DNA of 64,000 nucleotides from Candidatus Latescibacterota bacterium (GTDB lineage Bacteria; Latescibacterota; UBA2968), in NCBI GenBank assembly GCA_965222605.1, contig OZ244960.1, positions 5,984,001-6,048,000 on the forward strand. Direction: 5' to 3'. The position numbers and the translations under genes are program-made. The notes beneath the pieces were generated by a model that was not told where the DNA came from, searched no databases, and worked only from the letters and a program-made list of their open reading frames with translations. Below are positions 19,990 to 38,324 of the stretch, in pieces. The first letter of the stretch is position 1, and every line of letters begins with the position of its first letter.

Positions 19990-21555
19990 TTGATGAAAAT
20001 TCTTCTTACTTTTACGGGCTTTCATGACCCATATTCATTGGGTTTGGTTGGCGAAGAAGAGCAGCCTGGGCCCATTTTGTCTCTTATAGGGGCTGTGCCG
20101 TTTGACAAGGTCGTTCTCTTGTCAACACCTGCAACAGAGAGCCATACTGCTGGGACACGGGAGGCGCTTGAACGGACACATTCAGAGATATCTGTAGAAA
20201 TACTGGATTTTCCGCTTGCTGACCCTACGGATTACCATGCCATCATTCAGGAACTTCGAGAGAAGATTCCTCCGGTTCTGGGGAAATTCCCAGATGCGAA
20301 ATTCTCTATCTCAGTCGCCTCAGGGACACCGCAAATGCACGCGAGCTGGGTGCTCTTAACCGCTAGTGGAGAGATTCCTGCTCAGATCCTTCATGTTCGC
20401 CCGCCCAGGTTTGTTACGAAAGACCGACCTCTCGTATCAGAGGTCAAGCTGGCTCCGACCTATACGCAGCCTTTAAAGGAAGGGTTTAATCTCAAACTTG
20501 CTGAATTTCGACAAGAGTCAACAGCCCTCTTTTCACCAAGCGATGCGAAAGTGTCGGAAGTACCGGAACCCTACTTTACGCCAGATTTGGATGAAATCGT
20601 CGCGCAAATGGGGATTGTTGGAGAGCATCAGAGCGTTCGAAAGGCCATTGAAATTACGGATCAGCTTGCGGGATCAGACTTTCCGCTTCTTATTTTGGGA
20701 GAAACGGGCACGGGAAAGGAGTTATTTGCCAAACTTGCGCATCGGCTCAGTAGAAGGCCTCCAGACAAGTTTGTTACTTTGAGCAGTCCCAATATACCCC
20801 ATGAACTGGTTGAAAGTATGTTGTTTGGCCACAAAAAAGGCGCGTTTACCGGGGCTGTTCGTAATCAGACAGGTAAGTTTGAGCAAGCGGATGGAGGTAC
20901 GCTTTTTTTGGATGAAATCGGGGAACTCCCGCTGCCTACGCAGGCAAAATTGCTGCGTGTGTTGCAGGATGGTATTATTGAACCGCTCGGTAGCACAAAG
21001 AGCAAGCAGGTCAATGTGAGGATTGTTGCGGCGACAAATCGCGATCTGTTGGAAGAAATTAAAGCAGGAAATTTTCGGGAGGATCTGTATTACAGACTGC
21101 GAGGAGGAGAGATACGACTTCCTTCTTTACGGGAACGTAGAAGTGATGTTGGTAAGTTGGCACTGAATATCCTGGATCGCGTGAATGCCAGTTTGCGATA
21201 TCCAAAGCGGTTTACCCGGGAAGCCTTGAATCGTCTGGAGAGTTTTAGTTGGCCGGGGAATGTTCGTGAACTGGAATTTGTGATTGAGCGTTCAGCGCGG
21301 CTCGCTCGAAAGGAGTTGCTGGATGCAGATGACATCGTATTCGATGCGCCAGCTTCTGGAACAGACCCCTTTGCATCACTTCCGGAACCACATGATGGAT
21401 TCTATATGAACGATTATCTTAAGAGCGTGCGCAAGCAATTGATGCTTCGCGCCCTGGAAATTGCCAATGGGAATCAGAGCCAGGCGGCAAAGCTGTTGGG
21501 GGTTACGGCACAGGCCGTGCATAACTTCATCAAGGACGAAGATGGAAAGTCGTGA
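19990..21555 (+). CDS. Sigma-54-dependent enhancer-binding protein with N-terminal CARF/RtcR-like domain
   Basis: AAA+: GETGTGKE, LFGHKKGAFTGA, LFLDEIGEL, FREDLYYRL, WPGNVREL; Fis HTH GNQSQAAKLLG; N-terminus GFHDP..GPILS..DPTDY..ASGTPQMH is CARF/RtcR-like; no receiver domain. Confidence 0.88.
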   Translation: MMKILLTFTGFHDPYSLGLVGEEEQPGPILSLIGAVPFDKVVLLSTPATESHTAGTREALERTHSEISVEILDFPLADPTDYHAIIQELREKIPPVLGKFPDAKFSISVASGTPQMHASWVLLTASGEIPAQILHVRPPRFVTKDRPLVSEVKLAPTYTQPLKEGFNLKLAEFRQESTALFSPSDAKVSEVPEPYFTPDLDEIVAQMGIVGEHQSVRKAIEITDQLAGSDFPLLILGETGTGKELFAKLAHRLSRRPPDKFVTLSSPNIPHELVESMLFGHKKGAFTGAVRNQTGKFEQADGGTLFLDEIGELPLPTQAKLLRVLQDGIIEPLGSTKSKQVNVRIVAATNRDLLEEIKAGNFREDLYYRLRGGEIRLPSLRERRSDVGKLALNILDRVNASLRYPKRFTREALNRLESFSWPGNVRELEFVIERSARLARKELLDADDIVFDAPASGTDPFASLPEPHDGFYMNDYLKSVRKQLMLRALEIANGNQSQAAKLLGVTAQAVHNFIKDEDGKS

Positions 21556-21559
21556 AGAT

Positions 21560-21596
21560 TTAAACGTGGGTTGAAAAGGCTTTAACTTATCTTGAA
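21560..21596. promoter_or_regulatory. Tandem imperfect palindromes, candidate upstream activator sequences
   Basis: TTAAAC-GTGG-GTTGAA (21560-21575) and TTTAAC-TTAT-CTTGAA (21581-21596), 21 bp apart, ~75-110 bp upstream of the -24 element. Confidence 0.5.
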
Positions 21597-21628
21597 TGTA
21601 TCAGAGGAGGAAAATCAAGTTCGTATTT

Positions 21629-21641
21629 TAATGTATTGATT
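21629..21641 (-). promoter_or_regulatory. IHF-binding site
   Basis: TAATGTATTGATT is the reverse complement of AATCAATACATTA, an exact match to WATCAANNNNTTR, between the UAS and the promoter. Confidence 0.55.
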
Positions 21642-21670
21642 TTATAGGTTTTATGGTTTGTTTATGATTT

Positions 21671-21686
21671 TGGCACATGGTTTGCT
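21671..21686 (+). promoter_or_regulatory. Sigma-54 (-24/-12) promoter
   Basis: TGGCAC-ATGGT-TTGCT matches TGGCAC-N5-TTGCW with GG-N10-GC spacing. Confidence 0.85.
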
Positions 21687-21731
21687 GCACATAGTGATAA
21701 ACTATCACTCTTCACATTTAGGAGGCAGACT

Positions 21732-22013
21732 ATGGCAATGTTCAGAGTCGTAAATATAGTTGATGGAGACACATTTGATGTGTCGTCCTGGAAGTGGAAA
21801 GGACAGACAGGAACTCGGGTGCGCCCAACGGGTTACGATGCACCTGAGCTTTCATCATCTCAAGGACAAGCAGCTAAGAGAAAATTGACGAATCTAATTT
21901 TGGGGAAGGACGTTGAGTTGCGGCAGGCACACCGAATTGATAGAGGACGTCTCGTGTGCGACGTTTACTACAACGGGGTTTATCTGGCTCACTACTTTCC
22001 CGAATATCAATAG
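21732..22013 (+). CDS. Thermonuclease (SNase-like) small nuclease, no signal peptide
   Basis: IVDGDTF, RVR..GYDAPEL, DRGRLVCDVY; RBS AGGAGG at 21720-21725. Confidence 0.8.
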   Translation: MAMFRVVNIVDGDTFDVSSWKWKGQTGTRVRPTGYDAPELSSSQGQAAKRKLTNLILGKDVELRQAHRIDRGRLVCDVYYNGVYLAHYFPEYQ

Positions 22014-22028
22014 GTGGGGTATATCTAA

Positions 22029-22874
22029 GTGAAGCGGAAATTTCAGGTCTGCAATGGCTATTATCTTGAATTTGAGCAACTTGCCAGAGTATTGAATTTT
22101 CTAAAAGCCAATCTTGATGCTAAAAAGATTAGTCGGGCTGATCTGATGGATGGGACAGGGCTCTCAGAGCGGCAGATCGAAAGTCTGGTAAGTGTTGGAG
22201 CTGCGATGGATTTGATTCAGCGTGGCAAGCAGATCCTTAGCGAGTCCGGTAGATTGATTGCCGAGAATGATATTTTTATTGAGGCAAAGGGATCTCTGGA
22301 ATGGTGTCATTACAAAGGTGCTGGTAATTATCGAAACCTAATCTGGTACGATATTTTTAATGTCATTCTTCCCTATGAATCGCCTATGACGTCTGAAGGG
22401 TGGATGGCCCATCTAAGGGAGATTTTGGCTGGGCAGTACACGGACAGGACGATTGGCAAGCATCTTCAAGAGGAAGTTCGTTTTGTTGAGAACGCATACC
22501 TTGAACGGAATTTTGGACGTCTTGAACTGCTGTATCAGAGTTCAGAGAATTTCATAAGCCGTCGCCGTCATTCTAATCCCGATCCCAAGGTTTTTGCCGC
22601 CATTCTCTACGCCTATGCTGAGGTTCATAATGCGAATTTGCATCAGGTAAAAGATCTTGTGGAAACGGTGGGTGCTCCAGGTTTTTTGTTTGCTCTCGAC
22701 GAGGGTACACTCAGATTGATTTTAGAGGAACTGCATAAGCGCGGTTGGATTCGCTTTGAGGGTACTCATAATCTGGATCAGGTTCGGCTGAAAAGCGAAT
22801 TCTCGTACCTTGATTTTCTCGCAGCCTATTATGAAGATCGCGAACCCGAGGCAAAATCAGTCTCAAAAGGATAG
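22029..22874 (+). CDS. DUF4007 (SspB/BrxA-like winged-helix) protein
   Basis: LSESGRLIAENDIFIEAKGSLEWCHY, WYDIFN, APGFLFALDE and GTHNLDQV follow the DUF4007 pattern as I recall it. Confidence 0.65.
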   Translation: MKRKFQVCNGYYLEFEQLARVLNFLKANLDAKKISRADLMDGTGLSERQIESLVSVGAAMDLIQRGKQILSESGRLIAENDIFIEAKGSLEWCHYKGAGNYRNLIWYDIFNVILPYESPMTSEGWMAHLREILAGQYTDRTIGKHLQEEVRFVENAYLERNFGRLELLYQSSENFISRRRHSNPDPKVFAAILYAYAEVHNANLHQVKDLVETVGAPGFLFALDEGTLRLILEELHKRGWIRFEGTHNLDQVRLKSEFSYLDFLAAYYEDREPEAKSVSKG

Positions 22875-22884
22875 GGACGCATTC

Positions 22885-23352
22885 GTGAATGATGGCATCG
22901 ATATTATCAAGCAGGCAAAGGGATTGCCCCAAAGACCAAGGGGTAGAGCGTGTATTGTTTTGACGCACAAACATGAGGAGCAAAGGGCCTGGGCTAAGGA
23001 ACTGGCCGTGCAAATGGGTGCACATCATCTCGATCTGTTGGATCATTTTGCATCTCATCCAGATTTGACAGAGAATATTGGGCAATTTACAATTCAGAAC
23101 CTGTTCGATTTGCTGTCCTCAATGAGGAATCAGAAGGTTTTGATTGTGACCGGTTTGGAGTTTTTGTTGGCAACATGGACGGGCAGTCCTAGTGCGATGG
23201 AGCAATTTGCGCATCAGATTGAATCCTGGGATAAATCGCCAGCCTTGCTGATTGTCATGCAATACGATGGTGCGCTGGCTACCAGAAGGTTCACACGATA
23301 CCCTCAGTATAAATTCGTTGTAGATCAAAAGGAGACGTTTGCACTGTTATGA
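22885..23352 (+). CDS. Small degenerate P-loop-fold BREX accessory protein (BrxF/BrxB-like)
   Basis: ~155 aa from GTG 22885; alpha/beta pattern with KVLIVTGLEFLL at a Walker-B-like position, no Walker A; ATGA overlap with the MTase. Confidence 0.5.
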   Translation: MNDGIDIIKQAKGLPQRPRGRACIVLTHKHEEQRAWAKELAVQMGAHHLDLLDHFASHPDLTENIGQFTIQNLFDLLSSMRNQKVLIVTGLEFLLATWTGSPSAMEQFAHQIESWDKSPALLIVMQYDGALATRRFTRYPQYKFVVDQKETFALL

Positions 23353-26300
23353 AAAATCAAGGTCTTTTTAGCACATTATTCATTGAAGACATTCAGAAAG
23401 AAACAGAACTGGACGATATGGGCGGGGGTCGTATGACCGCCCTGGCTCAAGCCTGGCAAGCGTGCAATCGAGGCTCTGCTGATGATCTATGGGAAAGTTT
23501 TGTCAAGCAGGCGGTTAGTTACCTGGAGTTCGCGCCGCGCGCTGCACCGGCTGTTCCTGGAATTTATCTCCTGTATGAAGATTGGGGATTTAGGAACTGC
23601 CTTTCAGTGCTTTGTCTTGTTGATCCAAAAGGAGATATGGATGATACGCGTGTGGGGCACTTCTGGGTTGGCAAGCTTATTGCCGAACTGAAGGCCTGCA
23701 GTCTCAATTGGGGCATTTTGACGGATGGGAGTTGCTGGCGACTTTATTCCTTAAAGACAGCAAAGCCCTATGAAGAGTACGTTGAATTGCCTCTATCGAA
23801 TGCCCTTGAAAACAATGACGAAGCCGAATATGCTTTGTTTGAGCATTTTTTTCATCGTGATGTTTTTGTGCCAGAGCGACCTGATGAAGATGAGGATGAT
23901 GCAGAAGATGAGAAGGCTACTGTCAAGGAGCTTTACAAGTGCCGTCTGGATAGAGATGGAGAGCAATCTGAAGAGATTCTGGAGGAATATGTAAAATCTC
24001 CACTGCTGAATCAGGTTGATGAAGTCCTCCAATATATCTGCAACGGATTCATTGCGGATACGTCCCGCAAAGGGGGAGAGTACACGGAAGATGAGCGCCG
24101 CGAGATCTTTGAAAGTGCCGTCAAACTCCTCTACCGGTGTTTGTTCCTTTTTTATGCTGAATCACGTCATCTGTTGCCCTCAGATACAGAAAAAACCGAA
24201 GTCTATGAAGAGGGGCTTTCGATTTATGCGTTGTGCCGGGAGGCACATGGTTTTCGTTGGGGGAAGCGTAGTGACCACGGAGAGTATGATCTCTGGCAGC
24301 ACTTGAAAGGGCTGATCAGCGCGGTGAACGATGGCGACTCAGAATACGGGATTATGGGATACGATGGTGGCCTTTTCGACGATGAAGAGGAACTCTTTCT
24401 TGGGCAGCATCGACTGCGGAATGATTTCCTTGCTCGTGCCCTTTATCTGTTGGCTTTCGTTGAGCCTTATAATTCTGATCCAGAAGAAGAATATGAGATT
24501 CCCTATGAGGATCTGGAAGTTCGGCATCTGGGAGAACTGTATGAGAACATCCTGGAATTCAACGTTATGTTGGCCGAAGTAGATATGGTTCGGGTGCAGT
24601 CCAAGAAAGGCACTCAGATCCTTCCAAACACCGAAGTAAAGCAAAGGGCGTCGTCGCGCCTAATAAAAAAAGGGGATGTCTATTTTGGCGAGACTGCACT
24701 TGAGCGGAAGCAGACGGGATCGTATTACACACCGGAGTCATTGGTTCATTTCCTCAACCAGAAGGCTATTATACAGCCCTTAAAGGAGCGCTTTGAAAGT
24801 GATTTCAGGGAGCGGTTTGATCAATTTCTGGAGCAAGCTACTGAAGGATTTGATTCGTCAACGCGGAGCGGGGCCGTTCAATCTGCAGTCGCACTGATAG
24901 AGCGATTCGTGAACGAGGTTGTTCTGGATTTTAAAGTTTGCGATCCGGCAATGGGCAGTGGGCATTTCCTGGTTAATGCGTCAAACCAAATGACGGTTCT
25001 GGTGGTCGATCTGTTTACAGAAATCCCGGTAGCTGAGGGATTCAACTCTGACTTGAATTGTGAGATCAACTATTGGAGAAGGCTGATCACTCGACATTGT
25101 CTCTATGGAGTGGACCTGAATCCTTTGGCAGTTCATCTGGCCAGACTTTCTCTCTGGCTGAACAGCTTTGCGAGGGATCATAAATTGACATTTTTGGATC
25201 ACCATTTGCGGTGTGGGAATAGTCTGATTGGAATCCGATCCCTTAGCCAGCTTCGAAAAATACCTAAAAGGAAAAAGGATCGTCGCAGAAAAACAGATCA
25301 GGAAGAGCTTTTTGATTTGACCCAGTTGTCAAGTATCCTTGATGTTGCTGCTAATACGACACTGAAGATTACCGAAGTTGATGAGGACGATACAGATAGG
25401 CAGAAAGGCATGTTCAGTCAGGCTCAAGATGCTACTGCCGATTTTCATCCATTGGCAGATCTGTTTACAGCCTATTTAATGGATTTAGACATTCAGATAG
25501 TTGATTATAGGGATCTCTTCGAATGTTTGGCAACCGGAAAGTCTGTTTCTAAGACTTTAAATCCTTACTTACCGGAACTTTTGGAATCTATCGGTGCTTA
25601 TCGTGAGAAGCACCAATTCTACCATTGGCCGTTAGAATTCCCTGATGTTTTCGCTCCTGGAGCTATGGGAGGGTTCTCTGCAACAGTTGGAAATCCTCCG
25701 TGGGATATTTTGAAACCTAATTCGCAAGAATTTTTCTATGCGTATGATTCAAAGTTCCGCTCCTATAATAAAAAGGAAGCTAATAGTGTATGCGAGAAAA
25801 TACTCAACCAGAATCTAAGTATACAAGCAAAATGGGAAGATTACTGCGCACGTTTTAGCCAACAGAGTTCATATACAAGGGAACCCTTGACATATCAATT
25901 TCAGGGCAGAGGAGACATAAATACGTACAAGCTTTTCCTTGAGCTGTTCTTTATTCTACTAAATGATAGTGGGTATATTGGCATTCTTGTGCCTAGTGGA
26001 TTATATACAGACCAAGGATGCGCACTGCTGCGAAGATTGTTCTTTGAAAATACGCATGTGGATAGTTTGTTCTGTTTTGAGAATAAAGGTATTTTCAATA
26101 TTCACAGAAGTTATAAGTTTGTCACCTTCTGTACAAGGAAGGGTGAATCTTCTGGTAGGCTCAAATGTGCATTTATGGAACACGATCCAGATAGCTTACC
26201 TCGATTAGAGAAGAATTCGCTCGAAATAAATGTAAACCAAATAAAGAAACTTGCCCCAGAGAACCTAAATATTTTTGAGTTCCAAAATCAACAAGAAATA

Positions 26301-26610
26301 GACATTATCGAGAAGATATATTCCGATCATCCTCCATTAGGGCAGAAATCCAACTCCCCCTGGTCTGTGCTGTTCACTAGAGAGATAGACAATATGGGTG
26401 ACATGGAGATGCTAAATCAAGATGGTTTCGGGGTCCCTCTGTATGAAGGAAAGATGATTCACCAATACAATCCAAACTTCGCCAAAAATAACTATTGGAT
26501 TGACCCGGATAGAGCACGAACAAAACTCAAAAAGTTTCCGGAACAAAAACTGATAAATGCGGATCATTATCGTCTTGTAAATCGCCGCCAAGCACGGACA
26601 ACCGATACTA

Positions 26611-27511
26611 ACCTTTGGTGCTAGTAGATAAGAAGTTGTAAGTCGCCAGAAGTTTACCTATGCTGAATGAGTTAGCACCTCATTCATTCACAGCAGGGAG
26701 GTAAACTTCATGACGACTGAAATGCTGATCATTGACCTGTTCTGTCGGGTAGATGATCAAACGCAAGACCTTGAGAAACATCCTCAAGCCAAGCTCTATC
26801 CCAGCGAAGTCATCACGTTGGCCTTGCTTTTTGCGATTAAAGGGGTGGGCAATCGCGCCTATTATGATTGGCTGATAAACGATTGGCAGCACCTGTTTCC
26901 TAACTTACCTCATCGCACGCGCTTGTTTCGCCTCTTTTTAAGGCATCAACACGCCACAAGCCGATTTTTAGCCGAAAAGAGCGTGTTGGGCATCATTGAT
27001 AGCTATGGCATTGAGTTGATTCATCCGATCCGAGAAGGCAGAAGTCCTGCTCAGATCGGGAAGAAAGGCAAATCGAATTATCGCTGGATTGTCGGTGGCA
27101 AGCTCTGTCTGTTGATCAATCAATGGGGTCTCATCGTGGATTGGGACTGTCAGACAGCTAATGTTCACGATACCACCTTCCACCATCTCATCAAGCAGGT
27201 GCAATCAGACATGGTCGTCTTTGCCGATGTCGGCTTTCAAAAAGCGCAAGACAACCCAGAAAACTTAAAAATCTGTCCGCGTGGCACTTGGAATGAGCGC
27301 ATGGTGGTTGAAACCATCTTATCTATGATGACGCTCGTGTGGCATTTTAAGAAAGTCATGCATCGGGTCTGGAGCTATTTTGCAATGCGATTGGCTTTTA
27401 CCATGGCCGCCTTCAATATCTTGGTACAATGGCAGGGCTTTAAACCCGATGAAGATGGGTTCATTAACCTTGCCATCGCACACTTCAGAATATAACACTA
27501 GCACCAAAGGT
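26611..27511 (+). mobile_element. IS982-family insertion sequence, 901 bp, 5-bp target duplication TACTA
   Basis: Perfect terminal IR ACCTTTGGTGCTAGT (26611-26625) / ACTAGCACCAAAGGT (27497-27511); TACTA at 26606-26610 and 27512-27516. Confidence 0.9.
26710..27495 (+). CDS. IS982-family DDE transposase
   Basis: KLYPSEVITL N-terminus, IIDSYG, FADVGF, ERMVVETILS; RBS GGGAGG. Confidence 0.85.
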   Translation: MTTEMLIIDLFCRVDDQTQDLEKHPQAKLYPSEVITLALLFAIKGVGNRAYYDWLINDWQHLFPNLPHRTRLFRLFLRHQHATSRFLAEKSVLGIIDSYGIELIHPIREGRSPAQIGKKGKSNYRWIVGGKLCLLINQWGLIVDWDCQTANVHDTTFHHLIKQVQSDMVVFADVGFQKAQDNPENLKICPRGTWNERMVVETILSMMTLVWHFKKVMHRVWSYFAMRLAFTMAAFNILVQWQGFKPDEDGFINLAIAHFRI

Positions 27512-28386
27512 TACTAGAGCAATGATTGCGTGTATTCTGCCACCTAATACATTCATGTGGGATAACCTAGCTGTTACGAGAATTCTTGATCCATATGATA
27601 ATGAAGGTAAAGGAACGCTCTTAAATGAACCGGAATTGTGCTATCTTGCAGCAATATTAAATTCTTTTGTCTTTGACTTCGCACTAGGGATGCAGATCAA
27701 TGCGAATCTTAGTTTCTTCATTGTCTATGGAATCCCTGTTCCACGAAAGGCAAAGGGCGATTGGTTTTTCGATAAGATAATCCCACGCGTCGCCAGGTTA
27801 TCTTGTGTTAATCCATCATATGCTCAATTATGGGAAGAAATATACCTGCCTTCTTGGGTAGAAAGTGAATTGTGGTATGAAAAGCAAGGTATAGGCTATG
27901 ATACATACGGACCTGTACATGAGAAGGAAATCCGCGAAAATGTGTTGCAGTCTTTGGGAGATCTCACTCCGATTTGGTCAGAGAAATGTACAGCCAAAGA
28001 TTGGAACTCAAACAAAATGGATATTACACATAGATCTCAATTCCGAGCAGAGTTGGATGCTCTTGTTGCCCACTTATATAGTCTGAGCAGAGAGGATTTC
28101 ACGCATATTCTTGACACTTTCGAGGCACTGAAGCGGAAAGAGGTCGATAACTTTGGGGAGTTTGTATCCAAACGGAAATGTCTGGAGGAATATGATCGGT
28201 TGACACCGGTCATAGAGGCGTGGAATGACCCAGGAAAGTCTGAAATTTGAATTGAAGGGTTGAAGCAATCGGGTATGTCGAAAACAGCTCTTGAATAACT
28301 CGGCTTAGGAGAACTCTGACCCATATATTGCTTCCACAGTTGATGTGCCAAGGAAAATTCTGCCAATTCTGAAGAGGAAAGAAGCG

Positions 28387-31300
28387 ATGAGCAAAATTAA
28401 AGAGGTGGTAAACCTAAAGACTGGCTACGCGAACTTCGTGGTGTTGAAAAGTGCCTTTGAAGAAAGCCAAGAGAATGCTGATCGTATGGCAATGTACCGT
28501 CCCACCACTGCGCATCGCAGAGCATTTGAGCGTCTCTGTCGGGGATTGTATCAGCCTAACGACAAAAAATTCTACTTACTCAGTGGATCGTACGGTACAG
28601 GTAAATCGCATCTTTGTCTGATGTATGCAAATGCACTCAGCCGATCCAGCGGTGATACAGAGATCAAGGGGTTTTATGACAACTATGAGAAACTGGATGC
28701 CAATGCAGCAAAGCAACTGAGAAATATCCGTAAGGGCGGTCAGTACCTGGTTGCGATCTGTGATTACCACTCGGGAAGACGGTTTGAGGATGTGGTGTTA
28801 AAGGCTGTTTTTAAGGCCTGTAAATCCAAAGATCTTGATGCAGAGGTAGAAACAGAATTTGACGAGGCGGAACGCCAGTTGACGGATTGGGAGAGGCAGG
28901 CAGAGGATCCCGCTGCGATCCGCAATTACTATGAAGACTTTTCCAAAGCCCTCGAACGGACTGCGCCAGGGTTGACTGTTGACCAACTTCGTGCCGGTCT
29001 GACTGATTACAATTCTGAATCTTTGGAGCAGTTTAGGGTAGCCTACAAGCTTGCCCAGGGGGGAACAGAATTTCAAGCACAATCGGGTAATCTCATTCCA
29101 ATTGTTCAGAAATTGGTAAGAAGCACGGCGTTCAAAGCTCGGTTCAAGGGACTGGCTATCTTGTTTGATGAGTTTGGATTTACTCTGGAAAAGGCGGCGT
29201 ATTCAAAGGATGTGCTTCAGGGATTCATGGAAACCATCTGCCGAAATGAACCCAATGTTGTTTTTGTAGGTTGTATCCATAAAGACTTCAAAGCATATGC
29301 AGACAGATTTAGTCGGGATGATGCCTCTGTGATGAGCGCACGAATCACAACAGTTGATCTTTTGAATGAAGGTATTGAGGAAATTATCGGAGCAATCGTA
29401 GAGACAGAAAAGACAGGTCAAGTCTGGAACAGCGAAGTGAAACCCAAACTCGGTGTGCTGGACGCTCTATTGCCTGTGTGTGAAACACTCAAACTCTTCC
29501 CCTGGATCCCAGATACCAAGCGAATTCGTCAGCGTGTGCTTGAGGACATTTACGGTGTCCATCCCGCTGCTCTTGCGGCTTTACTCAGACTGTCTTCTGA
29601 GATAGGATCTGACGCCCGCAGCACCTTCACATTTTTCTCTGGTGAGGTAGGCGGGGCTGAGGGTTCCTATGCGGAGTTCATTGAAGACAGCGACTTGCTG
29701 GACAGTAGTGGGAAACTGAACCTTTACATCGTGGATAGGCTTTTCACATTTTTCCAAGGCGAACTGTCTCCCAGCAATGCCGAGTTGCGCGACACGCAGC
29801 GTCAATTGGTCAACGGCTATGTTGCAAGTTTTGATGCCATGCAAAAGGCAAGCGAGAATGAGTTAGTGAATGATCGCGAGGCTCTGCAGACTTCGATTCT
29901 ACAAACTATTCTGATCTATCAGTTGTCGCAGATTCCCACCACTTTGGATAATATCCAGTTTGGCCTATATGCCCTGACTTCAGGAGAAAAGAAGATCATA
30001 GAGACAAACTTAGATCTTCTCGCCAAAACGGGTGCCGTGTTCTTCCGGCAACAGTCAAAGACTTATGAACTTGCTGTCGGAAGCGGTGTTGATCCCTACG
30101 ACCTGATAAATCGCTATCTGGAAGATACGTCTAAGCATCCTGAAGATATGGTCAAGGCATTTCTTTCTGAAGTGAAAAGTCCGGAGGTTCTGGATGCCAA
30201 GCAGCACAATCTTACCTATGGTGAAGACAAACGCTTTCGAACTGTCTATGTGAGAGCGAAAGATATGGGCGAAAATCTTTGGGAAAAACTCAAGAAGGAA
30301 CAATTGGAAGCAGTATTAAAGCCCAACAGTAGCTACGAGGGCGTTGCTGTCTATGCGCTTTGTGAAGATGTTTCAGATATTCAGGTTGCCCGCGAAGCGG
30401 TGCAAGATATTCCGTGCGACGATTTCGTCGTTGGTGTTCCCGATGAGCCACAGCCCTTTACGGAGATGCTTCTCAAAGTCAGGGCATGTAGAAATGCTCT
30501 TGATCCACTATCTGAAGAAAAGCTGAATGCGCAAACCGAATCACGCCTGCGGGATCTTTTTGAGAATCCACAGGATGGATTTCTGCCAACACTTCAAAGT
30601 ATTTTCAAGCAGATTGATAGTGGCGAAGGTGCATGTTGGTACAGTAAGTCTGGAAAAGTCGTTGTGGGTCAGCCAAAGCAGCCGCATGGACCAGTTGATA
30701 CGCTGTGCGAGCAGATGTTTACCAAACGCTGCAAGATTAATCACACAGATTTGAACTGGGTACACGACGATAAATGGCGCACGGCTAGAAACAATGCTTT
30801 GAGACAGGCAGTGAACACGCTTCTGCAGCCTGATCGCGTGCAGATTGACAACGGAAATCCAGCCAGCCATGGAGAAAAACGCTATCTTGAACGGGTATTG
30901 CTGAAAGGTGCAGGAGCATTGAGGAAGATCGATGATGATGGCCCTGTGACGTTCTTTTTTTGTGAAAGTGATTCCAAGAAAATAGACGATAGCTTCCCTG
31001 TTCTAAAGGAACTCTGCGAACGGTTGTCAAATCTCAATTCTGGAGAAAGTCTTCCTATAGGAACATTCATTAACGACGCCAAAAACGCACCATACGGTTC
31101 TGGCGGAACGGCGCTGATGCTTGCCCTGGCACATGCAGTGCGAGCTTTAGGTGAGCGGTTGAGAATCTATAAAGATTCCACTATGATCACTGAATATCCT
31201 GTTGAAGAATACGGAGAATTATCAGCGCTTGTGTCCGATCCTGCTACCAGTGTGGTTTTTGAAGTCCGCGAGATTTCTGATATCCAAAGAAAACTGGTGG

Positions 31301-32457
31301 AAGCAGTCGCTACTACGGTCGGAGCACCGCCACTCAAACATGGCGAAACTCGATCTTTGAATGAAACATTTGAGGTTCTGGAATCCTGGTGGCGCAGTGT
31401 ACCACCGGTGGCAAAGATCACAGAGATTTACGAGAAGAAACATACAGACGGATTGAGGAAGTTCAAGGACGCATTTGATGATATCCGCAATGGTGACCGG
31501 TATGAATTTCTTCTCGGAGGGCTGCCCGCAATTTACGAAGATGAAATTGCAGACGATAAGTTGACTGAGGATGGTGTGAATGCCATTTCTCAAGCATTTT
31601 CCGCACATGTCAAACATTTGAACACTGGCTACCAAATTGTTACAGACAAAGTTGCGGAAGCTGTTTCGGAGATGTTCGGCGAGAAGGGGGATCTTGTTCA
31701 ATGCAAAACCGCTGTCGAAGCCTGGTATGAGGAATTGACACCGAGACAGCGCCAGGCAATGACTTACCAGGACAGTCCGGAGGCTGAAAGCCTGGTTCGG
31801 ATCTTGGGGGATTCTTCCATAGACTTTGAAACTCAATTGACGAACCGTTTGCCAAAAGATTTCGGTTTGGGGGAAGTGTCGGATTGGCCTACCCTTCACA
31901 TTGATGATTATACGGCCAAACTGAAACAGGCACTGGAGGCTGTTGACGCTGCCGCCATTGTCATTGACCCCCCAGAAATTGAAACGGTTGGCAATGCAAA
32001 GCAGATCAATTCTCAGAAATACGAACTCGCGAGTGGCGCTGAGATTCTCCTCAAGATACCTGATGGTGCGTCTTCCCTGATCTATAGCATATCGGAAACT
32101 GATTCAGAGACTGACCCCAAGACCGCCACAGATAGAGTTGTGAGCAAAGAGGACACGGATTTGGGCGATGTCGTTACAGACAAGCCTTTTTCTTATATTC
32201 GCACTCGTGCGATGGATGCTCAAGGAAATTACAGTGATCCAGTCTCCTTTACGGTCATCTACAAACCCCTTGAATACAAGCCCGTATTTAACGATCGGAA
32301 AGACGACCTCTTTGTTCGGGAAGCCCATTTCAAGATCCCTGAGACTGTGGATGATTTGAAAACTGTGCTCAAGGGGATATTAGAGGAATCAAAGACTCTT
32401 AAGATCATTGACGACAAACAGGCAAAGGCACTGATTGCCGTTATAGATGAACTTTGA
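28387..32457 (+). CDS. brxC: BrxC/PglY-like large P-loop ATPase (DUF6079-like) with C-terminal Ig/Fn3-like segment
   Basis: Walker A GSYGTGKS, Walker B ILFDEF, YGVHP; ~1356 aa from ATG 28387; lies between the MTase and PglZ. Confidence 0.8.
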   Translation: MSKIKEVVNLKTGYANFVVLKSAFEESQENADRMAMYRPTTAHRRAFERLCRGLYQPNDKKFYLLSGSYGTGKSHLCLMYANALSRSSGDTEIKGFYDNYEKLDANAAKQLRNIRKGGQYLVAICDYHSGRRFEDVVLKAVFKACKSKDLDAEVETEFDEAERQLTDWERQAEDPAAIRNYYEDFSKALERTAPGLTVDQLRAGLTDYNSESLEQFRVAYKLAQGGTEFQAQSGNLIPIVQKLVRSTAFKARFKGLAILFDEFGFTLEKAAYSKDVLQGFMETICRNEPNVVFVGCIHKDFKAYADRFSRDDASVMSARITTVDLLNEGIEEIIGAIVETEKTGQVWNSEVKPKLGVLDALLPVCETLKLFPWIPDTKRIRQRVLEDIYGVHPAALAALLRLSSEIGSDARSTFTFFSGEVGGAEGSYAEFIEDSDLLDSSGKLNLYIVDRLFTFFQGELSPSNAELRDTQRQLVNGYVASFDAMQKASENELVNDREALQTSILQTILIYQLSQIPTTLDNIQFGLYALTSGEKKIIETNLDLLAKTGAVFFRQQSKTYELAVGSGVDPYDLINRYLEDTSKHPEDMVKAFLSEVKSPEVLDAKQHNLTYGEDKRFRTVYVRAKDMGENLWEKLKKEQLEAVLKPNSSYEGVAVYALCEDVSDIQVAREAVQDIPCDDFVVGVPDEPQPFTEMLLKVRACRNALDPLSEEKLNAQTESRLRDLFENPQDGFLPTLQSIFKQIDSGEGACWYSKSGKVVVGQPKQPHGPVDTLCEQMFTKRCKINHTDLNWVHDDKWRTARNNALRQAVNTLLQPDRVQIDNGNPASHGEKRYLERVLLKGAGALRKIDDDGPVTFFFCESDSKKIDDSFPVLKELCERLSNLNSGESLPIGTFINDAKNAPYGSGGTALMLALAHAVRALGERLRIYKDSTMITEYPVEEYGELSALVSDPATSVVFEVREISDIQRKLVEAVATTVGAPPLKHGETRSLNETFEVLESWWRSVPPVAKITEIYEKKHTDGLRKFKDAFDDIRNGDRYEFLLGGLPAIYEDEIADDKLTEDGVNAISQAFSAHVKHLNTGYQIVTDKVAEAVSEMFGEKGDLVQCKTAVEAWYEELTPRQRQAMTYQDSPEAESLVRILGDSSIDFETQLTNRLPKDFGLGEVSDWPTLHIDDYTAKLKQALEAVDAAAIVIDPPEIETVGNAKQINSQKYELASGAEILLKIPDGASSLIYSISETDSETDPKTATDRVVSKEDTDLGDVVTDKPFSYIRTRAMDAQGNYSDPVSFTVIYKPLEYKPVFNDRKDDLFVREAHFKIPETVDDLKTVLKGILEESKTLKIIDDKQAKALIAVIDEL

Positions 32458-34871
32458 TCAGACTTATGGTCAATCAAACTGAACCATTTGAAATATGTTT
32501 TGTAGGATCGCAAAAGGGTGTTACACCCGAAGGCACTTTGCTCGTAATCACAGATCGAGACTACGTCAAAGCCTGCAAGGCTGTTAATGATGCCGCAAAC
32601 CGACCAAAAGGGGTCTGGGTGGCACAAAGGCCACATGTTGCCTGGTTTAAGGCCTACTGTAATCTACTTGATCTTAATTGCTGCGTTCGAGAACTTACCT
32701 CTCGTGTGATTTTGGCAGACAGGTGGGATGTTACAATACCCGATTGGTTGAATGACCAGAGGGTTGAGTCAGAGAAACTGCTCGACTTAGATATTTCCAC
32801 TGAGGGCGTTGATGATTTTGTAGATGTTGTGTTAGGTCATTTCCTGAGTCGATCCTTTTGTTCATCGAGATTAGACCCAGAGCATGTATCAGAGGTTCTT
32901 TCTGCAGTGGTGAGTTCAGAATACAAAACACATTCTGACCGGTATCCCATAATCAGCGACTGTTTGAGTGAGAAGTGTGTGCAGTGGGAAGAAAACACTG
33001 ATCAATCATGGATGGGAGAATTCAGCCGGAGCCTCGTAGATCAGCCAGATGCGCTCTGGCACGATTTGACTTTGTGGGCACTCCTCGGGCATTATTCAGA
33101 CCAGCTTATTGAGTTCGTCACTGGACCGCAGAGAGTTGTATTTTTGAGGTCAATACCTGTCGGACTTCTGTCCAGCCTGCGTCTTCATCCGGCTGCTGTA
33201 GATACAGCTCAAAATCAGATTCGGCTATTTTTCAATGATATTCTTCAAGACCCTGTATCTTCGACAGAGGATCTCAAGAAAGTTCTGGGTACTGTTTCTC
33301 GTCGGTTAGCCATAGAGTTCTCCTTTGTCGAGCAGATTTTAGAGAACTCAAGTTACGAATTACAGGCAAAGGATATTGAGCTTGTCGAAGAAGTCTTTAA
33401 GACCTGCCCAGGAGTCAGCTCTGTCAAGATTGATGCTCTGGATCGTTTTGTGCCACCTGCCAGACCCTCGGAACAAGACGCTGGTGACGCTTGGGGGGGA
33501 GCCCGATGGTTGGATTGGTCTGTAAAAGAATATATTCCCTACAGGCAATGGCAGATTCAGAACAAGCACTATGAGCGTAAACTCGAACAGACTGTTCAGG
33601 CATTCTCTGATTGGTATGTTGATGAATACATGACCATTCATCAGGATACGGGAAAAAGCCTTGTTCACCTTCTCAGTGAGTGGCGTGAGCATCTGGTAAA
33701 TGACGACCTTTCTTTGATATTGCTGATTGATTGTCTGCCCGTTGCTTTTTGGACGTTATTTGAGGAAGCAATGGGAAATATTGGGTTCCATCGCCACCAA
33801 CAGGAATATAGATTCGCCCCTTTACCGAGCCATACTGAAGTATGCAAACCCTTGTTGCTTGGTAGTGACTGGGAAAAGACGGATACCAAATACGACCGCT
33901 TGCTTCAAGAACGAGGACTCAGAGATTGGCCAGGCAAACAGGTTCTGTATTTGCACAATCTGCAGAAGCTGTCTGAAGCAGACCTGGGTGGCGGTGCATC
34001 TGTTCTTGTGCTGAACTTTCTCGCGGTTGACCGGACCCTACATGCGGACGTTGAGGCAGATGGCAGTACACATAGAGAAGAATTATTCAGATTGTTTGTT
34101 CGTCTTGCAGAAGCAGTAAAAGACCTTTTGAACCGATGGCAGGGAGATAAAGATAAATTCGGGGTGTATGCCGTTACGGATCACGGTGCAACAAAAATCA
34201 TTGATGATGAAAAAGCAACCTTGGACTCACAGATCGTGAATCGTCTGTTTGAGTACGAGAAACACCGGTTTGCTCAGATTCCCAAAGACTGCACAGACGA
34301 AATACCGGAGAATTTGTGGGCTTTTGGGTACAGATTTAAACCACCATTTAACAATCAAGACACGGTGTTCTTTATTCCTAAAGGTCACAATACGGTCAAG
34401 AAGGGCAACAAGACGACAGGTTTTGTACATGGTGGTGCGGCTCCAGAGGAGGTTATTGTACCTGCTGCCATTTTTCGGCCTGTCAAGGTTTCCTGGCGTG
34501 AACCTTTGGTGCGTTTCGTGGATCTTAGGACGGATCGTCAATCTGGGCACGCGATTTTTTATATCTTACGCGTTGTCCCAATCAGACTTGAAGTACAGAA
34601 TCCAAATGCAGAACCCATTAGTATTGTTAGAGTAGATGTTGTCAGTCCAGACGCTGATGTCAAGGAGTTCACAACTGGACAGATTGAGCCAGAATCAGTT
34701 GGCGAATTGTCGCTGAGTTGTTATTTCAAAAAGGCTGCGCAAGATCAAGAGGAACTACTGCTACAGATTACTTATGAACTTGCAGGCGGTGAATACACGA
34801 TGCAGGTTCTTACTGCTGCAGTATTTAGATCGGCCACTACTGGTGGTTTTAATTTGAAAGATTTAACATAG
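32454..34871 (+). CDS. pglZ: PglZ alkaline-phosphatase-superfamily protein
   Basis: LLIDCLP, PLPSHTE, VTDHG, FVHGGAAPEEVIVP; overlaps the brxC stop. Confidence 0.88.
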   Translation: MIRLMVNQTEPFEICFVGSQKGVTPEGTLLVITDRDYVKACKAVNDAANRPKGVWVAQRPHVAWFKAYCNLLDLNCCVRELTSRVILADRWDVTIPDWLNDQRVESEKLLDLDISTEGVDDFVDVVLGHFLSRSFCSSRLDPEHVSEVLSAVVSSEYKTHSDRYPIISDCLSEKCVQWEENTDQSWMGEFSRSLVDQPDALWHDLTLWALLGHYSDQLIEFVTGPQRVVFLRSIPVGLLSSLRLHPAAVDTAQNQIRLFFNDILQDPVSSTEDLKKVLGTVSRRLAIEFSFVEQILENSSYELQAKDIELVEEVFKTCPGVSSVKIDALDRFVPPARPSEQDAGDAWGGARWLDWSVKEYIPYRQWQIQNKHYERKLEQTVQAFSDWYVDEYMTIHQDTGKSLVHLLSEWREHLVNDDLSLILLIDCLPVAFWTLFEEAMGNIGFHRHQQEYRFAPLPSHTEVCKPLLLGSDWEKTDTKYDRLLQERGLRDWPGKQVLYLHNLQKLSEADLGGGASVLVLNFLAVDRTLHADVEADGSTHREELFRLFVRLAEAVKDLLNRWQGDKDKFGVYAVTDHGATKIIDDEKATLDSQIVNRLFEYEKHRFAQIPKDCTDEIPENLWAFGYRFKPPFNNQDTVFFIPKGHNTVKKGNKTTGFVHGGAAPEEVIVPAAIFRPVKVSWREPLVRFVDLRTDRQSGHAIFYILRVVPIRLEVQNPNAEPISIVRVDVVSPDADVKEFTTGQIEPESVGELSLSCYFKKAAQDQEELLLQITYELAGGEYTMQVLTAAVFRSATTGGFNLKDLT

Positions 34872-34885
34872 ATTGAGGTAAACAG

Positions 34886-36865: not shown

Positions 36866-36893
36866 GCGACTCGACTGGTTGATTATTTACCAC

Positions 36894-36930
36894 AAAGAGG
36901 AGTGAGTTCACTCACTCCTCTTTCCTTTTT
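36894..36930 (+). terminator. Rho-independent terminator ending the BREX-like operon
   Basis: 13-bp stem AAAGAGGAGTGAG-TTCA-CTCACTCCTCTTT followed by CCTTTTT, 28 nt after the brxL stop. Confidence 0.8.
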
Positions 36931-37211
36931 GGGCTTCAAGAGGCATTTAAATGCGTTCCAATCCAGGTTTAATATTCCGCTCCGATATCACTCATCAATC
37001 GCTTAATCAAGGGATTTATTGCAGGATTGAGTGGTTGGCACATATATTGCTCTACCTAAGGTATAACAGAAAAGGGGAGGTATCTCAGCAAGATGATACA
37101 CCTATTAAAATCCCTGATGAGCAGGTGGTTGCGGTCAAAGATGGGCAAATCGTCAAGGACGGCAACTGGTAGTTTTTCGCTGAATTCTCGATTATTGTAC
37201 AGGAGGGTGAA

Positions 37212-38324
37212 ATGGCGTTGAAGATTTTGCATACTGCGGATCTGCATTTGGGACTGAAATTCGCAGGCTATCCGGATGTCCAAAACAAACTCACTGAGGC
37301 GAGGTTTGAGGTGCTGGAAGGCTTGGTTGACCGAGCCAACTCAGAACAGTGTGACCTTTTTGTTCTGGCTGGTGACGTTTTTGATCGGGTAACCGTTGCC
37401 AGACGAGATATCAGCAGGTGTATTGATATCTTGAATGAATGCAATGGCCTGGTGATCTTACTGCCAGGCAACCACGACTATATGTCCAGTCAAAGCGACT
37501 TATGGAAGTACGTTGTTGAAAATGGTGGTGATCGGTTGTGTGTATTGGAGAAACAGGAGCCCGTTCCCTTGGATCACTATGATTTGGATGTTGTGCTCTA
37601 TCCCGGTCCTTGCACTGCCAAGCATTCTTCTGAGAATGCTATCGATTGGGTCAAAACGACCCATAAGGATCAGAGCACCAAATACCATATCGGAATTGCT
37701 CACGGGAATATTGAGGGGCTTGGTCTTGATGAACGGCGGAATTACTACCCGATGACCCGTGCAGAACTCCTTGAATGCGAAGTCGATCTGTGGCTGCTTG
37801 GTCATATCCACGTTCCATTCCCTGCTAAATCCGGTTCCAGCGAACGGATATATTATTCTGGCACGCCTGAACCGGATGGGTTCGATTGCCGCCATTGTGG
37901 ATGCGCCTGGATTATTGAGCTTGATAACAATAAGGCAATCAATGCACGGCAGATTTTCCCAGGAAAGTTTCAGTTTACACACCATGAGTTTGACTTGAGA
38001 ACGTCGGTGGACATAGAGAAATTGAAGAAATATTACACGGAAACGGACCGAACAAATCTGCTGGTAAAATTGAAGCTGACCGGGCGATTGCCCAGAGAAA
38101 CCTATGCAGAATTAGATTCTGTAAAATCTGTTATAAGAGATCATGTTTTTTATCTTCAGTGGGATGACAGCGATGTGGCTATAGAGATTACTCCCGATGT
38201 CATTGACCGGGAGTTTACCCAAGAATCTTTTCCATACAGGCTTTTAACGGAGCTTGCTCGCAGCGAAGAGGATGCAGAGGCACTACAGATTGGTTATGAA
38301 ATGATTCAGGAGGTGAAAGAATGA
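37212..38324 (+). CDS. SbcD/Mre11/YhaO-like metallophosphoesterase nuclease
   Basis: HTADLHLG, AGDVFD, PGNHD, IAHG, LGHIH, YSGTPE; RBS AGGAGG. Confidence 0.9.
   Translation: MALKILHTADLHLGLKFAGYPDVQNKLTEARFEVLEGLVDRANSEQCDLFVLAGDVFDRVTVARRDISRCIDILNECNGLVILLPGNHDYMSSQSDLWKYVVENGGDRLCVLEKQEPVPLDHYDLDVVLYPGPCTAKHSSENAIDWVKTTHKDQSTKYHIGIAHGNIEGLGLDERRNYYPMTRAELLECEVDLWLLGHIHVPFPAKSGSSERIYYSGTPEPDGFDCRHCGCAWIIELDNNKAINARQIFPGKFQFTHHEFDLRTSVDIEKLKKYYTETDRTNLLVKLKLTGRLPRETYAELDSVKSVIRDHVFYLQWDDSDVAIEITPDVIDREFTQESFPYRLLTELARSEEDAEALQIGYEMIQEVKE

Follow-up and report, generated by a model that had tools for sequence, protein, structure and literature searches.

A predicted RtcR-like sigma-54 activator and its conserved enhancer–promoter cassette in front of defence genes

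A 64,000-nucleotide stretch of the genome of Candidatus Latescibacterota bacterium (assembly GCA_965222605.1, contig OZ244960.1, positions 5,984,001–6,048,000 of the forward strand), referred to here as the window, encodes a protein with CARF, AAA+ and helix–turn–helix (HTH) domains, directly followed by the predicted elements of a sigma-54 enhancer and promoter and by an operon resembling bacteriophage exclusion (BREX) systems. This protein is most probably a member of the RtcR-like CARF–AAA+–HTH sigma-54 activators that are tied to defence genes and not to RNA repair, and would operate a two-promoter switch. The class and the idea are already published as predictions; the present analysis adds a conserved arrangement of cis-elements with its consensus, a small staphylococcal-nuclease-like protein (mini-SNase) encoded by the first gene, the two-promoter regulon, the weak and non-obligate link to BREX-like systems, and the disrupted state of the copy in the window.

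Bacterial enhancer-binding proteins (bEBPs) such as RtcR assemble as an oligomer on paired sites and contact the sigma-54 holoenzyme by way of a bend in the DNA, and RtcR deprived of its CARF domain is constitutively active. In the mechanism proposed for the window, the Fis-type HTH would bind both of two palindromes, two helical turns apart and just past the activator's stop codon; a protein of the IHF/HU type, or an intrinsic bend approximately 42 nt 5′ of the −24 element, would loop the oligomer onto the promoter-held sigma-54 holoenzyme; and ATP hydrolysis would open the promoter after the CARF domain had received a signal of infection or RNA damage, which an oligonucleotide or a partner protein could convey. 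Following the precedent of RtcR and other bEBPs, the CARF domain would keep the ATPase off until that signal arrives. Promoter A would drive mini-SNase and then a BREX-4-like methylase system (DUF4007, p180, methylase, BrxC/SspC, PglZ and BrxL-MIT_C), and promoter B a pair formed by a Metallophos protein and an LmuB-like SMC protein. From this arrangement we infer DNA binding at the sites, dependence on sigma-54 in vivo, an inducing signal and activity in defence.

The activator and cassette A

The activator gene, the upstream activating sequence (UAS) pair, the bend site, promoter A and the first operon gene are as follows.

19990–21555, plus strand: RtcR-like CARF–AAA+–HTH sigma-54 enhancer-binding protein, 521 aa from a TTG codon
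21560–21575, no strand assigned: predicted UAS site A1, TTAAACGTGGGTTGAA, score 21.7 with a matrix from relatives
21581–21596, no strand assigned: predicted UAS site A2, TTTAACTTATCTTGAA, matrix score 9.8, 90 nt 5′ of the −24 element
21629–21641, minus strand: IHF-like site, exact match to WATCAANNNNTTR, at position −42 from the −24 element
21671–21686, plus strand: predicted sigma-54 promoter A, TGGCAC-N5-TTGCT (TGGCACatggtTTGCT), exact pattern match
21693–21709, plus strand: 7-bp inverted repeat in the leader (AGTGATA..TATCACT), with weak folding scores
21732–22013, plus strand: mini-SNase, 93 aa, first operon gene, with a staphylococcal-nuclease fold by AlphaFold2 (AF2) and Foldseek and a sub-threshold Pfam match

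The true start of the activator is probably the in-frame ATG at 19993 (520 aa), because the N-terminus that it gives, MKILLTFTGFHDP, fits the family consensus. The protein matches Pfam Sigma54_activat (1.3e-63), AAA_lid_14 and HTH_8 (1.5e-5), and its N-terminus matches Cas_Csm6_CARF (29.4 bits, cut-off 27.5) and comes just below the cut-off for RtcR (22.6 bits, cut-off 23.1). The PADLOC model PDLC01995, 'RtcR_PspF2--CARF_AAA_HTH', aligns over residues 2–516 (2.1e-126), and PADLOC models of CARF+HEPN Csx1/Csm6 proteins align with residues 1–138 (9.3e-15). The GAFTGA motif, held to be intact in the original prediction of a bEBP, was read directly at 20839–20856, and its columns are invariant or near-invariant across 24 activator homologues, as are those of Walker A (GETGTGKE) and Walker B (DE). 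Of more than 8000 homologues, the closest are P0001, at 91% identity, and P0002 and P0003, at 78%.

The N-terminal domain had been described as CARF-like, and Pfam, PADLOC and structure prediction agree on this point. The AF2 model of residues 1–200, made from 32 sequences, has a pLDDT above 90 over approximately residues 1–140 (80 for 131–140, dropping beyond) and consists of alternating strands and helices in a Rossmann-like arrangement. Its top Foldseek match is Enterococcus italicus Csm6 with a cA6 analogue (6tug, 1.5e-9), and the other best neighbours in the PDB, Streptococcus thermophilus Csm6′, Cam1, Cdn1, Cad1 and Can2, are likewise CARF domains. In sequence searches, the single N-domain sequence found no match in the PDB, and the family profile of the activator reached the 6tug Csm6 at 1.5e-4. 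Because the profile matches and the neighbours of the model are all CARF domains, the N-terminal domain is assigned, by profile and predicted fold, to the CARF domains.

The activator resembles RtcR, the rtcBA activator of Escherichia coli and Salmonella, in its three-domain architecture, its sigma-54 logic and the predicted gating of the ATPase by CARF, and differs from it in scoring below the equivalog cut-off and in preceding defence cargo in place of rtcBA. That it is an ordinary RtcR for RNA repair is extremely improbable. The NCBIfam RtcR equivalog (NF038308) is its best full-length named model (residues 35–509, 1.1e-89), and some relatives are named 'RtcR family' by NCBI, whereas the 301.7 bits obtained are far under the cut-off of 650, no RtcA or RtcB family occurs among 15 downstream and flanking proteins or in the operon of either promoter, and 80 relatives carry defence cargo. 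The features of RtcR-like CARF-bEBPs are found together here, namely the CARF domain, an AAA+ domain with GAFTGA, a Fis-type HTH, a full-length profile match and a defence neighbourhood; by sequence, the protein is an RtcR-like bEBP and not RtcR itself.

The region between the activator and mini-SNase, 21556–21731, measures 176 bp, the length first given for it. It contains the palindromes TTAAACgtggGTTGAA at 21560–21575 and TTTAACttatCTTGAA at 21581–21596, whose spacing of 21 bp was confirmed, the first being a strong match to the matrix and the second a weak one. The exact IHF consensus reported between them and the promoter is present on the minus strand; taken alone, the pattern is no more frequent in the window than chance allows (three matches, 2.44 expected), and its position is conserved in relatives. 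The −24/−12 promoter described as perfect is indeed an exact match, of a pattern found twice in the window where 0.05 would be expected, and is followed by AGGAGG and the ATG at 21732. The original prediction had been staked on the genome having rpoN, which was found (200 bits, in a 515-aa frame) together with four genes of the HU/IHF family. By sequence and conservation, promoter A thus combines exact −24 GG/−12 GC spacing, rpoN in the genome, upstream sites and an intervening bend site. An Rfam scan of 19000–41000 gave no matches.

A second CARF-bEBP is encoded elsewhere in the same genome, at C1:968297–969808 (locus L083). It is approximately 38% identical to the window family and scores 652 bits against PDLC01995, beyond the 419 bits of the window activator. 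The sequence TGGCACgaaatATGCT lies 58 nt 3′ of this gene, and fragmented AAA_15/DUF3696-type ATPase genes with partner genes extend downstream to approximately 977500. The locus has no site pair of the TTCAACC type, so its activator presumably uses a different UAS.

Conservation of the cassette, its first gene and its cargo

Relatives of the activator, 47–60% identical, are encoded at 80 loci from contigs representing one genome per species. These come from metagenome-assembled genomes (MAGs) and isolates labelled Thermodesulfobacteriota, Myxococcota, Nitrospirota, Planctomycetota, Verrucomicrobiota, Acidobacteriota, Gemmatimonadota, Pseudomonadota and others; a cultivated carrier of the cassette is Pseudoalteromonas phenolica (L022). 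For short downstream sequence, two of the 80 loci (78 counted) or four (76 counted, with at least 450 nt) were left out, and locus L047 was left out of the promoter and IHF counts, its sole pattern match falling inside the SNase gene.

In 48 of 78 loci, the 600 nt 3′ of the activator contain the strict pattern TGGCA[CT]-N5-TTGC[AT], mostly 113–163 nt past the end of the match. Alignment of the relatives on their promoters brings out two copies of a palindrome with the consensus TTCAACC-N2-GGTTGAA, and a matrix built from the relatives' sites places such a pair directly 3′ of the activator gene in 67 of 78 loci. Both pair and sigma-54-like promoter are present in 59 of 76 loci, so that the −24/−12 and UAS elements are conserved in homologous loci, where the original prediction had proposed to look for them. 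Within the pair the spacing is 21 bp in 51 of the 59 loci, and, counted from the start of the second site, the −24 element lies 89–94 nt away in 58 of 59 (median 93, compared with 90 nt at window promoter A). Between UAS and promoter, an IHF consensus with at most one mismatch was found in 29 of 62 loci versus 11% of shuffled segments, and such matches fall at two positions only, −43 to −41 and −30 to −28. Fixed geometry amid diverging sequence is what would be expected of a working enhancer–bend–promoter unit. Pair, promoter and mini-SNase occur together in 50 of 76 loci, and in three loci (L003, L005 and L078) the pair and a sigma-54-like promoter stand immediately 5′ of other defence genes.

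The leader between the −12 element and the ribosome-binding site (21687–21731 in the window), compared in approximately 50 loci, mostly contains a hairpin of 5–12 bp whose sequence varies by locus. The z-scores of this hairpin are weak (median −0.6; 9 of 50 below −2), and it is not claimed as a structure. In loci L055, L064, L065 and L075, a site pair lies 5′ of an RmuC-family gene that precedes the activator, followed in L064 and L065 by a sigma-54-like promoter; such pairs would put the activator inside its own regulated operon.

The only widely shared gene downstream of the activator is mini-SNase, detected by tblastn at 54–72% identity in 54 of 80 loci and starting 137–234 nt past the activator in relatives. 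The original prediction had not singled out the first gene behind promoter A, which is this conserved one. Pfam SNase (PF00565) scores 17.3 bits on the window protein, under its cut-off of 21, and does not match the orthologue in locus L038; a family profile searched against PDB sequences gave chance-level matches only, with no SNase chain at E up to 1. The AF2 model has a pLDDT of 92.6, and all 49 top Foldseek matches listed are staphylococcal nucleases (E approximately 2e-5 to 5e-5, TMq 0.59–0.70), the best having an E-value of 1.8e-5 and a TMq of 0.69. The predicted structure shares with staphylococcal nuclease a five-strand OB barrel and a helix, the conserved DGDT, RVRP, YDAPE and DRGR motifs would line up with its Ca2+-binding and catalytic residues, and the protein is unlike it in its length of only 93 aa, the absence of C-terminal helices and of an evident signal peptide, and the score below the Pfam cut-off. 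Modelling therefore describes mini-SNase as an SNase fold without the C-terminal helices.

Relatives of mini-SNase are 93–94 aa long and conserve the motifs IDGDTF, RVRPxGYDAPE and DRGRLVC. The conserved columns include D13, R31, E39 and R73, which would correspond to D21, R35, E43 and R87 of SNase, and the position that would be equivalent to D40, the second Ca2+ aspartate, is N in about a fifth of the relatives. Among viral contigs, the mini-SNase profile retrieved 80 loci, all SNase-like, with the activator in none of the 80. Two predicted viral contigs that lack the activator (L114 and L115) encode look-alikes of approximately 95–105 aa, 47–48% identical and with the same C-terminal NLADYFPEY, and the mini-SNase type is thus not exclusive to the cassette. 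Mini-SNase may serve as an inexpensive effector made early, or it may act on the signal as feedback. Complex prediction for CARF residues 1–160 with mini-SNase gave a score of 0.02 (mark 0.32), which weighs neither way on binding.

The cargo behind the activator is varied. A cluster of HsdR-like open reading frames (ORFs) occurs in 50 of the 80 loci and a merged HsdM/HsdS cluster in 48, Type I hsdR-hsdM-hsdS genes standing directly 3′ of mini-SNase in relatives. An AAA_15/DUF3696 ATPase cluster is found in 27 loci and its partner in 20, and DUF3800, protein-kinase (PD-T4-6/mad6-like) and AriA-like genes are interspersed among the cargo. BREX-like genes follow the activator in two loci, L052 and L060. 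In locus L024 (6482–9166), the gene behind the activator encodes a dynamin-type GTPase that carries an MIT_C domain like that of the window BrxL; its 'BrxL' match is this dynamin–MIT_C protein, and L024 was not counted as BREX-like.

The association was also approached from the side of the cargo. A methylase-anchored search of metagenome contigs returned 17 loci (L095–L108, L110, L111 and L113) with the gene order DUF4007-p180-methylase(-BrxC-PglZ-BrxL). Seven of these have at least 1.5 kb of upstream sequence, six of them distinct, since L096 and L097 look identical. The activator is present in one of the six, L102, which has one good UAS and a TGGCAC-N5-CTGCG promoter and has no mini-SNase; the other loci with at least 1.5 kb upstream show no sigma-54-like motif there. 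Small ORFs of 76–96 aa lie 5′ of DUF4007 in L095, L096, L100, L103 and L104. With the activator in just one of six distinct loci, it appears from gene order to be an optional add-on to the BREX-like system and not a component of it. By these counts the activator is not a BREX-specific regulator: the usual cargo is Type I restriction–modification (R-M), in approximately 48–50 of 80 loci, and BREX-like cargo is found in two.

In a FastTree phylogeny of 77 activators, for which 5 of the 80 rows were left out as short or interrupted, well-supported branches force at least eight changes when cargo is labelled as Type I R-M or not, and at least two when it is labelled as BREX-like or not; the window activator stands on a long unresolved branch. 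Activator, cis-elements and mini-SNase together have the appearance, in these comparisons, of a portable module joined to varied cargo. A cluster of near-identical activators (branch lengths 0–0.06) is encoded at L016, L018, L019, L027, L033 and L036, on contigs labelled Planctomycetota, Nitrospirota and Thermodesulfobacteriota, a pattern due either to recent transfer between phyla or to errors in binning.

A bolder interpretation, possible but on the unlikely side, takes the three-part unit to be a self-contained alarm switch that moves horizontally and fits in front of almost any defence operon, with mini-SNase a feedback part of the circuit and not an effector. Mini-SNase would then make or destroy the ends or oligonucleotides that CARF reads, in parallel with RtcA in the Rtc loop and with ring nucleases in Type III signalling, and the near-identical activators across phylum labels with shifting cargo would reflect the spread of the switch itself.

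The genes behind the two promoters and their state in the window

The first operon occupies 21732–36865 and, after mini-SNase, comprises the following features.

22029–22874, plus strand: DUF4007 protein, SspB-like/BrxA-like (Pfam DUF4007 1.7e-15; PADLOC SspB 1.5e-8; C-terminal part of BrxP 3.1e-8)
22810–23352, plus strand: 'p180', which accompanies DUF4007 and the methylase in 17 metagenome loci
23065–23093, plus strand: sigma-70-like site TTGACA-17-TACAAT, an 11/12 consensus match 256 bp 5′ of the methylase
23349–26610, plus strand: N6-adenine methyltransferase (Type IIG/DrmMI/PglX-like), N-terminal part, 54% identical to the intact 1314-aa protein of L052
26611–27511, plus strand: IS982-like insertion sequence (IS), 901 bp, with 15-bp terminal inverted repeats, a 5-bp target duplication (TACTA) and a transposase at 26710–27495
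27512–28250, plus strand: methyltransferase, C-terminal part, which joins the N-terminal part once the IS is removed in silico
28345–32457, plus strand: BrxC/SspC-like ATPase, 1370 aa (PADLOC SspC 8.5e-39, BrxC 7e-11)
32454–34871, plus strand: divergent PglZ, 805 aa (NCBIfam BREX_PglZ_4 4.9e-7, 28.7 bits with a cut-off of 140; PADLOC PglZ 1.4e-6; no Pfam match)
34886–36865, plus strand: BrxL with a C-terminal, PLD-like MIT_C domain (TIGR02688 431 bits, cut-off 329; Pfam BrxL_N, BrxL_ATPase and MIT_C, the last at 5.3e-46)
36894–36923, plus strand: intrinsic terminator, 13-bp stem and T-run, closing the first operon

The seven co-oriented defence genes originally counted here stand as seven native genes, one of them disrupted, within nine co-oriented ORFs: one ORF is the IS transposase and two are halves of one methylase. 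The strong terminator placed at the end of the operon is present as a 13-bp stem with a T-run. The product of p180 has no family match in Pfam, NCBIfam or PADLOC. Since alignments with relatives begin at about residue 24–26, its real start is probably close to 22880. The best models for the methylase are Type IIG (3.1e-81) and DrmMI (2.9e-76); BREX_1_MTaseX reaches 52.9 bits against a cut-off of 500, short of a PglX-type assignment.

BREX type 4 is defined by phosphorothioation and comprises BrxP, DUF4007, BrxC(SspC), PglZ and BrxL, according to passages of a 2026 survey (PMC12839542). The window system resembles this type in its DUF4007 protein, its SspC-like BrxC, its BrxL and a PglZ whose best, though weak, named match is the type-4 model, and differs in having no PAPS reductase, a 1331-aa Type IIG-like methylase with p180 instead, and a BrxL with MIT_C that is not Lon-like. 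Because PAPS reductase is missing from the locus, the two matches in the genome lying at 5.25 Mb and 1.61 Mb and thus outside the window (5.984–6.048 Mb), gene content suggests a methylase variant of BREX-4-like systems. No methylase-bearing type-4-like variant was found in the main text of PMC12839542, in the portions considered here; its supplements may list one. The locus itself appears to be a strain-specific island of approximately 21 kb, since within the phylum the window PglZ is confined to this genome (1 of 168 genomes, and none of the 20 other genomes of the genus) and the flanks hold sulfatase genes with a terminator upstream and a convergent gamma-glutamyltranspeptidase gene downstream.

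The methylase is interrupted by the IS982-like element, whose transposase scores 32.4 bits with DDE_Tnp_1_3 (cut-off 27) and 70.3 with the IS982 model, under its cut-off of 130. Counting this copy, nine identical full-length ones are present in the genome, as well as an 891-bp copy at 100% identity and one at 95.7%; the identity of the nine indicates a recently active element. Excision in silico of the IS with one copy of the target restores a single methylase frame of 1331 aa, comparable to the 1314 aa of L052. With its methylase split in this way, the BREX-like system is probably not working in the window strain.

Sequencing runs of relatives add a second form of loss. Run X5 (organism C, approximately 93–96% identical) has contigs over the activator, cassette A, mini-SNase, DUF4007 and much else including cassette B, while one contig of run X4 (organism B) joins 21495 to 37195 with a 3-letter overlap (21491–21495 onto 37191–37195), and a contig of run X2 shows the same joint at a depth of 18.6 beside the main 25. 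These contigs belong to a relative roughly 93% identical to the window. Their joint skips 15,699 bases, taking out both cassettes, all of the BREX-like operon and the final 19 codons of the activator, which encode part of the HTH, so that the activator frame abuts the start of the Metallophos gene. It looks like a microhomology deletion, and the contigs indicate that a form lacking the 15.7-kb operon exists. Uncovered parts, such as 25576–28231 in X5, carry no weight, and an X4 joint across the IS (26625 to 27497) was disregarded because one side is just 20 letters long.

Whether the locus in the window strain is a decaying remnant, in which the cassette may fire and the BREX-like part gives no defence for want of an intact methylase, on which BREX-type function depends, is evenly balanced, and this would be compatible with the regulator reading. 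The 901-bp IS with its target duplication and nine identical full copies, the contiguity of the methylase parts in L052 and in all nine metagenome loci that reach the C-terminal part, and the relative's contig without the operon speak for a remnant; all other genes keep full-length open frames, the insertion looks recent from its identical copies and could be polymorphic, and the halves of split methylases may sometimes still function.

Beyond the terminator lies a second cassette with its own genes.

36935–36972, no strand assigned: predicted second UAS pair, B1 (36935–36950) and B2 (36957–36972), 22 bp apart, matrix scores 7.2 and 15.8
36993–37005, plus strand: IHF-like site B with one mismatch, at −43 from promoter B
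37036–37051, plus strand: predicted sigma-54 promoter B, TGGCAC-N5-TTGCT, an exact match just past the first operon's terminator
37212–38324, plus strand: Metallophos (SbcD/Mre11-type) phosphoesterase (Pfam Metallophos 5.6e-16)
38321–40741, plus strand: SMC-like ATPase, SbcC/LmuB-like (Pfam AAA_23, AAA_27 and SMC_N; PADLOC LmuB of Lamassu, its best defence-family match, 2.6e-26)

The distance from B2 to the −24 element is 79 nt, one helical turn shorter than at promoter A. A scan of both strands of the 6.34-Mb genome, requiring a score sum of at least 22, at least 5 for each site and 20–22 bp between them, returned exactly two site pairs, A and B, both in the window locus and each 63–74 nt 5′ of an exact sigma-54 promoter; the thresholds were chosen after site B was known, so the fair claim is that nothing else in the genome equals the weaker pair. 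In loci L080 and L081, a similar site pair occurs 3′ of the Type I R-M genes behind the activator. One activator can, on this evidence from motifs, hold a two-promoter defence regulon in the window genome. Between promoter B and the Metallophos gene, 37083–37173 forms a short open stretch with no clear start codon, and the X5 relative has a 10-base deletion at 37102.

Weight of the reading, precedents and meaning

Several points weigh against a switch of the kind proposed. The loci compared share ancestry and do not count as independent, and many of them lie on MAG contigs that may carry the wrong taxonomic label. Sites A2 and B1 match weakly, with scores of 9.8 and 7.2 where the family median is 22.7. 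The only RNA-library run with related sequence, the marine metatranscriptome X1 (word share 0.06), yields contigs of a 92–94% relative at a depth of 3–6 that touch parts of DUF4007, p180, the methylase, BrxC, the start of PglZ, BrxL and Metallophos; assembled contigs at such low depth cannot show transcription, start sites or induction. The insertion in the methylase and the 15.7-kb deletion in a relative suggest that the module is decaying or costly. A modification system kept fully silent would meet an unmodified chromosome when induced, which makes some basal or internal-promoter expression likely, and the 11/12 sigma-70-like site 5′ of the methylase could drive constitutive expression. Lastly, no Cas10 (TIGR02578 and TIGR02577; Csm1/Cmr2) was found in the single-contig genome, which is 98.7% complete, so that a Type III cyclic oligoadenylate (cOA) signal would have no evident source in the host, even though the CARF model most resembles the cA6-binding Csm6.

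Two distinct alternatives were weighed. According to the first, the activator mainly controls mini-SNase and perhaps the first few genes, and the BREX-like genes from the methylase onwards are constitutive through internal sigma-70 promoters. The need of modification systems for standing methylation, the site at 23065–23093 and the identity of the activator's conserved partner, which is mini-SNase and not the cargo, agree with such an arrangement, and the IS may add outward transcription. It is nonetheless distinctly unlikely: a single site of this kind is within chance (0.21 sigma-70-like 11/12 sites expected on the operon strand), the genes are packed or overlapping from 21732 to 36865 with one strong terminator at the end, and in relatives the Type I genes follow mini-SNase directly.

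The second alternative, that the CARF domain senses cOA from Type III CRISPR or another cyclase in the manner of Csm6, has the nearest structural and profile neighbours, cA6-binding Csm6 CARFs, in its favour, and is a slim prospect given the missing Cas10 and the absence of cas genes among those recurrent clusters of the 80 loci that were annotated. The activator family moreover has SGTPQMH where many CARFs have a basic residue after strand 4, and for RtcR-type CARFs lacking that residue a different ligand was suggested in the passages of Makarova et al. considered here (PMC4012209). The leading published guess, in the portions of the two papers drawn on (PMC4012209, PMC11090510), is that the signal consists of RNA ends from infection or ribotoxins, as for RtcR.

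The sigma-54 switch proposed here has clear forerunners. In passages of Makarova et al. 2014 (PMC4012209), RtcR-like CARF/NtrC-AAA+/HTH proteins unlinked to Rtc are described as often sitting by R-M systems and are read as likely sigma-54-dependent activators of downstream genes that sense infection-derived ligands. The window protein is a full-length member of this class (PADLOC RtcR_PspF1/2), and most of its relatives head Type I R-M operons, as predicted there; the cis-elements and mini-SNase are absent from those passages, and the window differs in its BREX-like cargo and two promoters. Bell et al. 2024 (PMC11090510), in the sections considered, report superoperons of Type I R-M, BREX, Druantia III and CoCoNuTs that are headed by RtcR homologues, and propose UAS binding by analogy. 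The window locus is alike in that its co-oriented defence genes are preceded by an RtcR-like gene, and unlike in having no CoCoNuT (McrBC-type) genes and in ending at the convergent gamma-glutamyltranspeptidase gene. The surmise that CARF-bEBPs near restriction loci had been noted computationally is borne out by these two papers.

Neither 'SNase' nor 'staphylococcal' is mentioned in the portion of PMC11090510 considered, and the corresponding portion of PMC12839542 leaves RtcR unmentioned and has CARF in its reference list only. Literature searches found nothing joining CARF, RtcR and thermonuclease, and no experimental study of an RtcR-like CARF activator in defence, in keeping with the original statement that no experimental description was known. 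The supplements of PMC4012209 and PMC11090510 may already list activator neighbourhoods or mini-SNase.

The importance of the window locus itself is limited, its cargo being disrupted by an IS and one of the rarer combinations. Its regulator differs in kind from the regulators of defence expression that have been characterised, which are repressors such as BrxR and CapW. Like BrxR of BREX type 1, the window activator is a predicted ligand-sensing transcription factor upstream of a BREX operon; BrxR, by contrast, is a repressor at a sigma-70 promoter and has a WYL and not a CARF fold.

For timing the expression of costly defence systems, this class would provide bacteria with a positive, ligand-gated switch locked by sigma-54. 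With TTCAACC-N2-GGTTGAA present twice at a spacing of 21 bp, a bend site, and approximately 93 nt to the −24 element, as derived from 59 loci, the switch is now testable.

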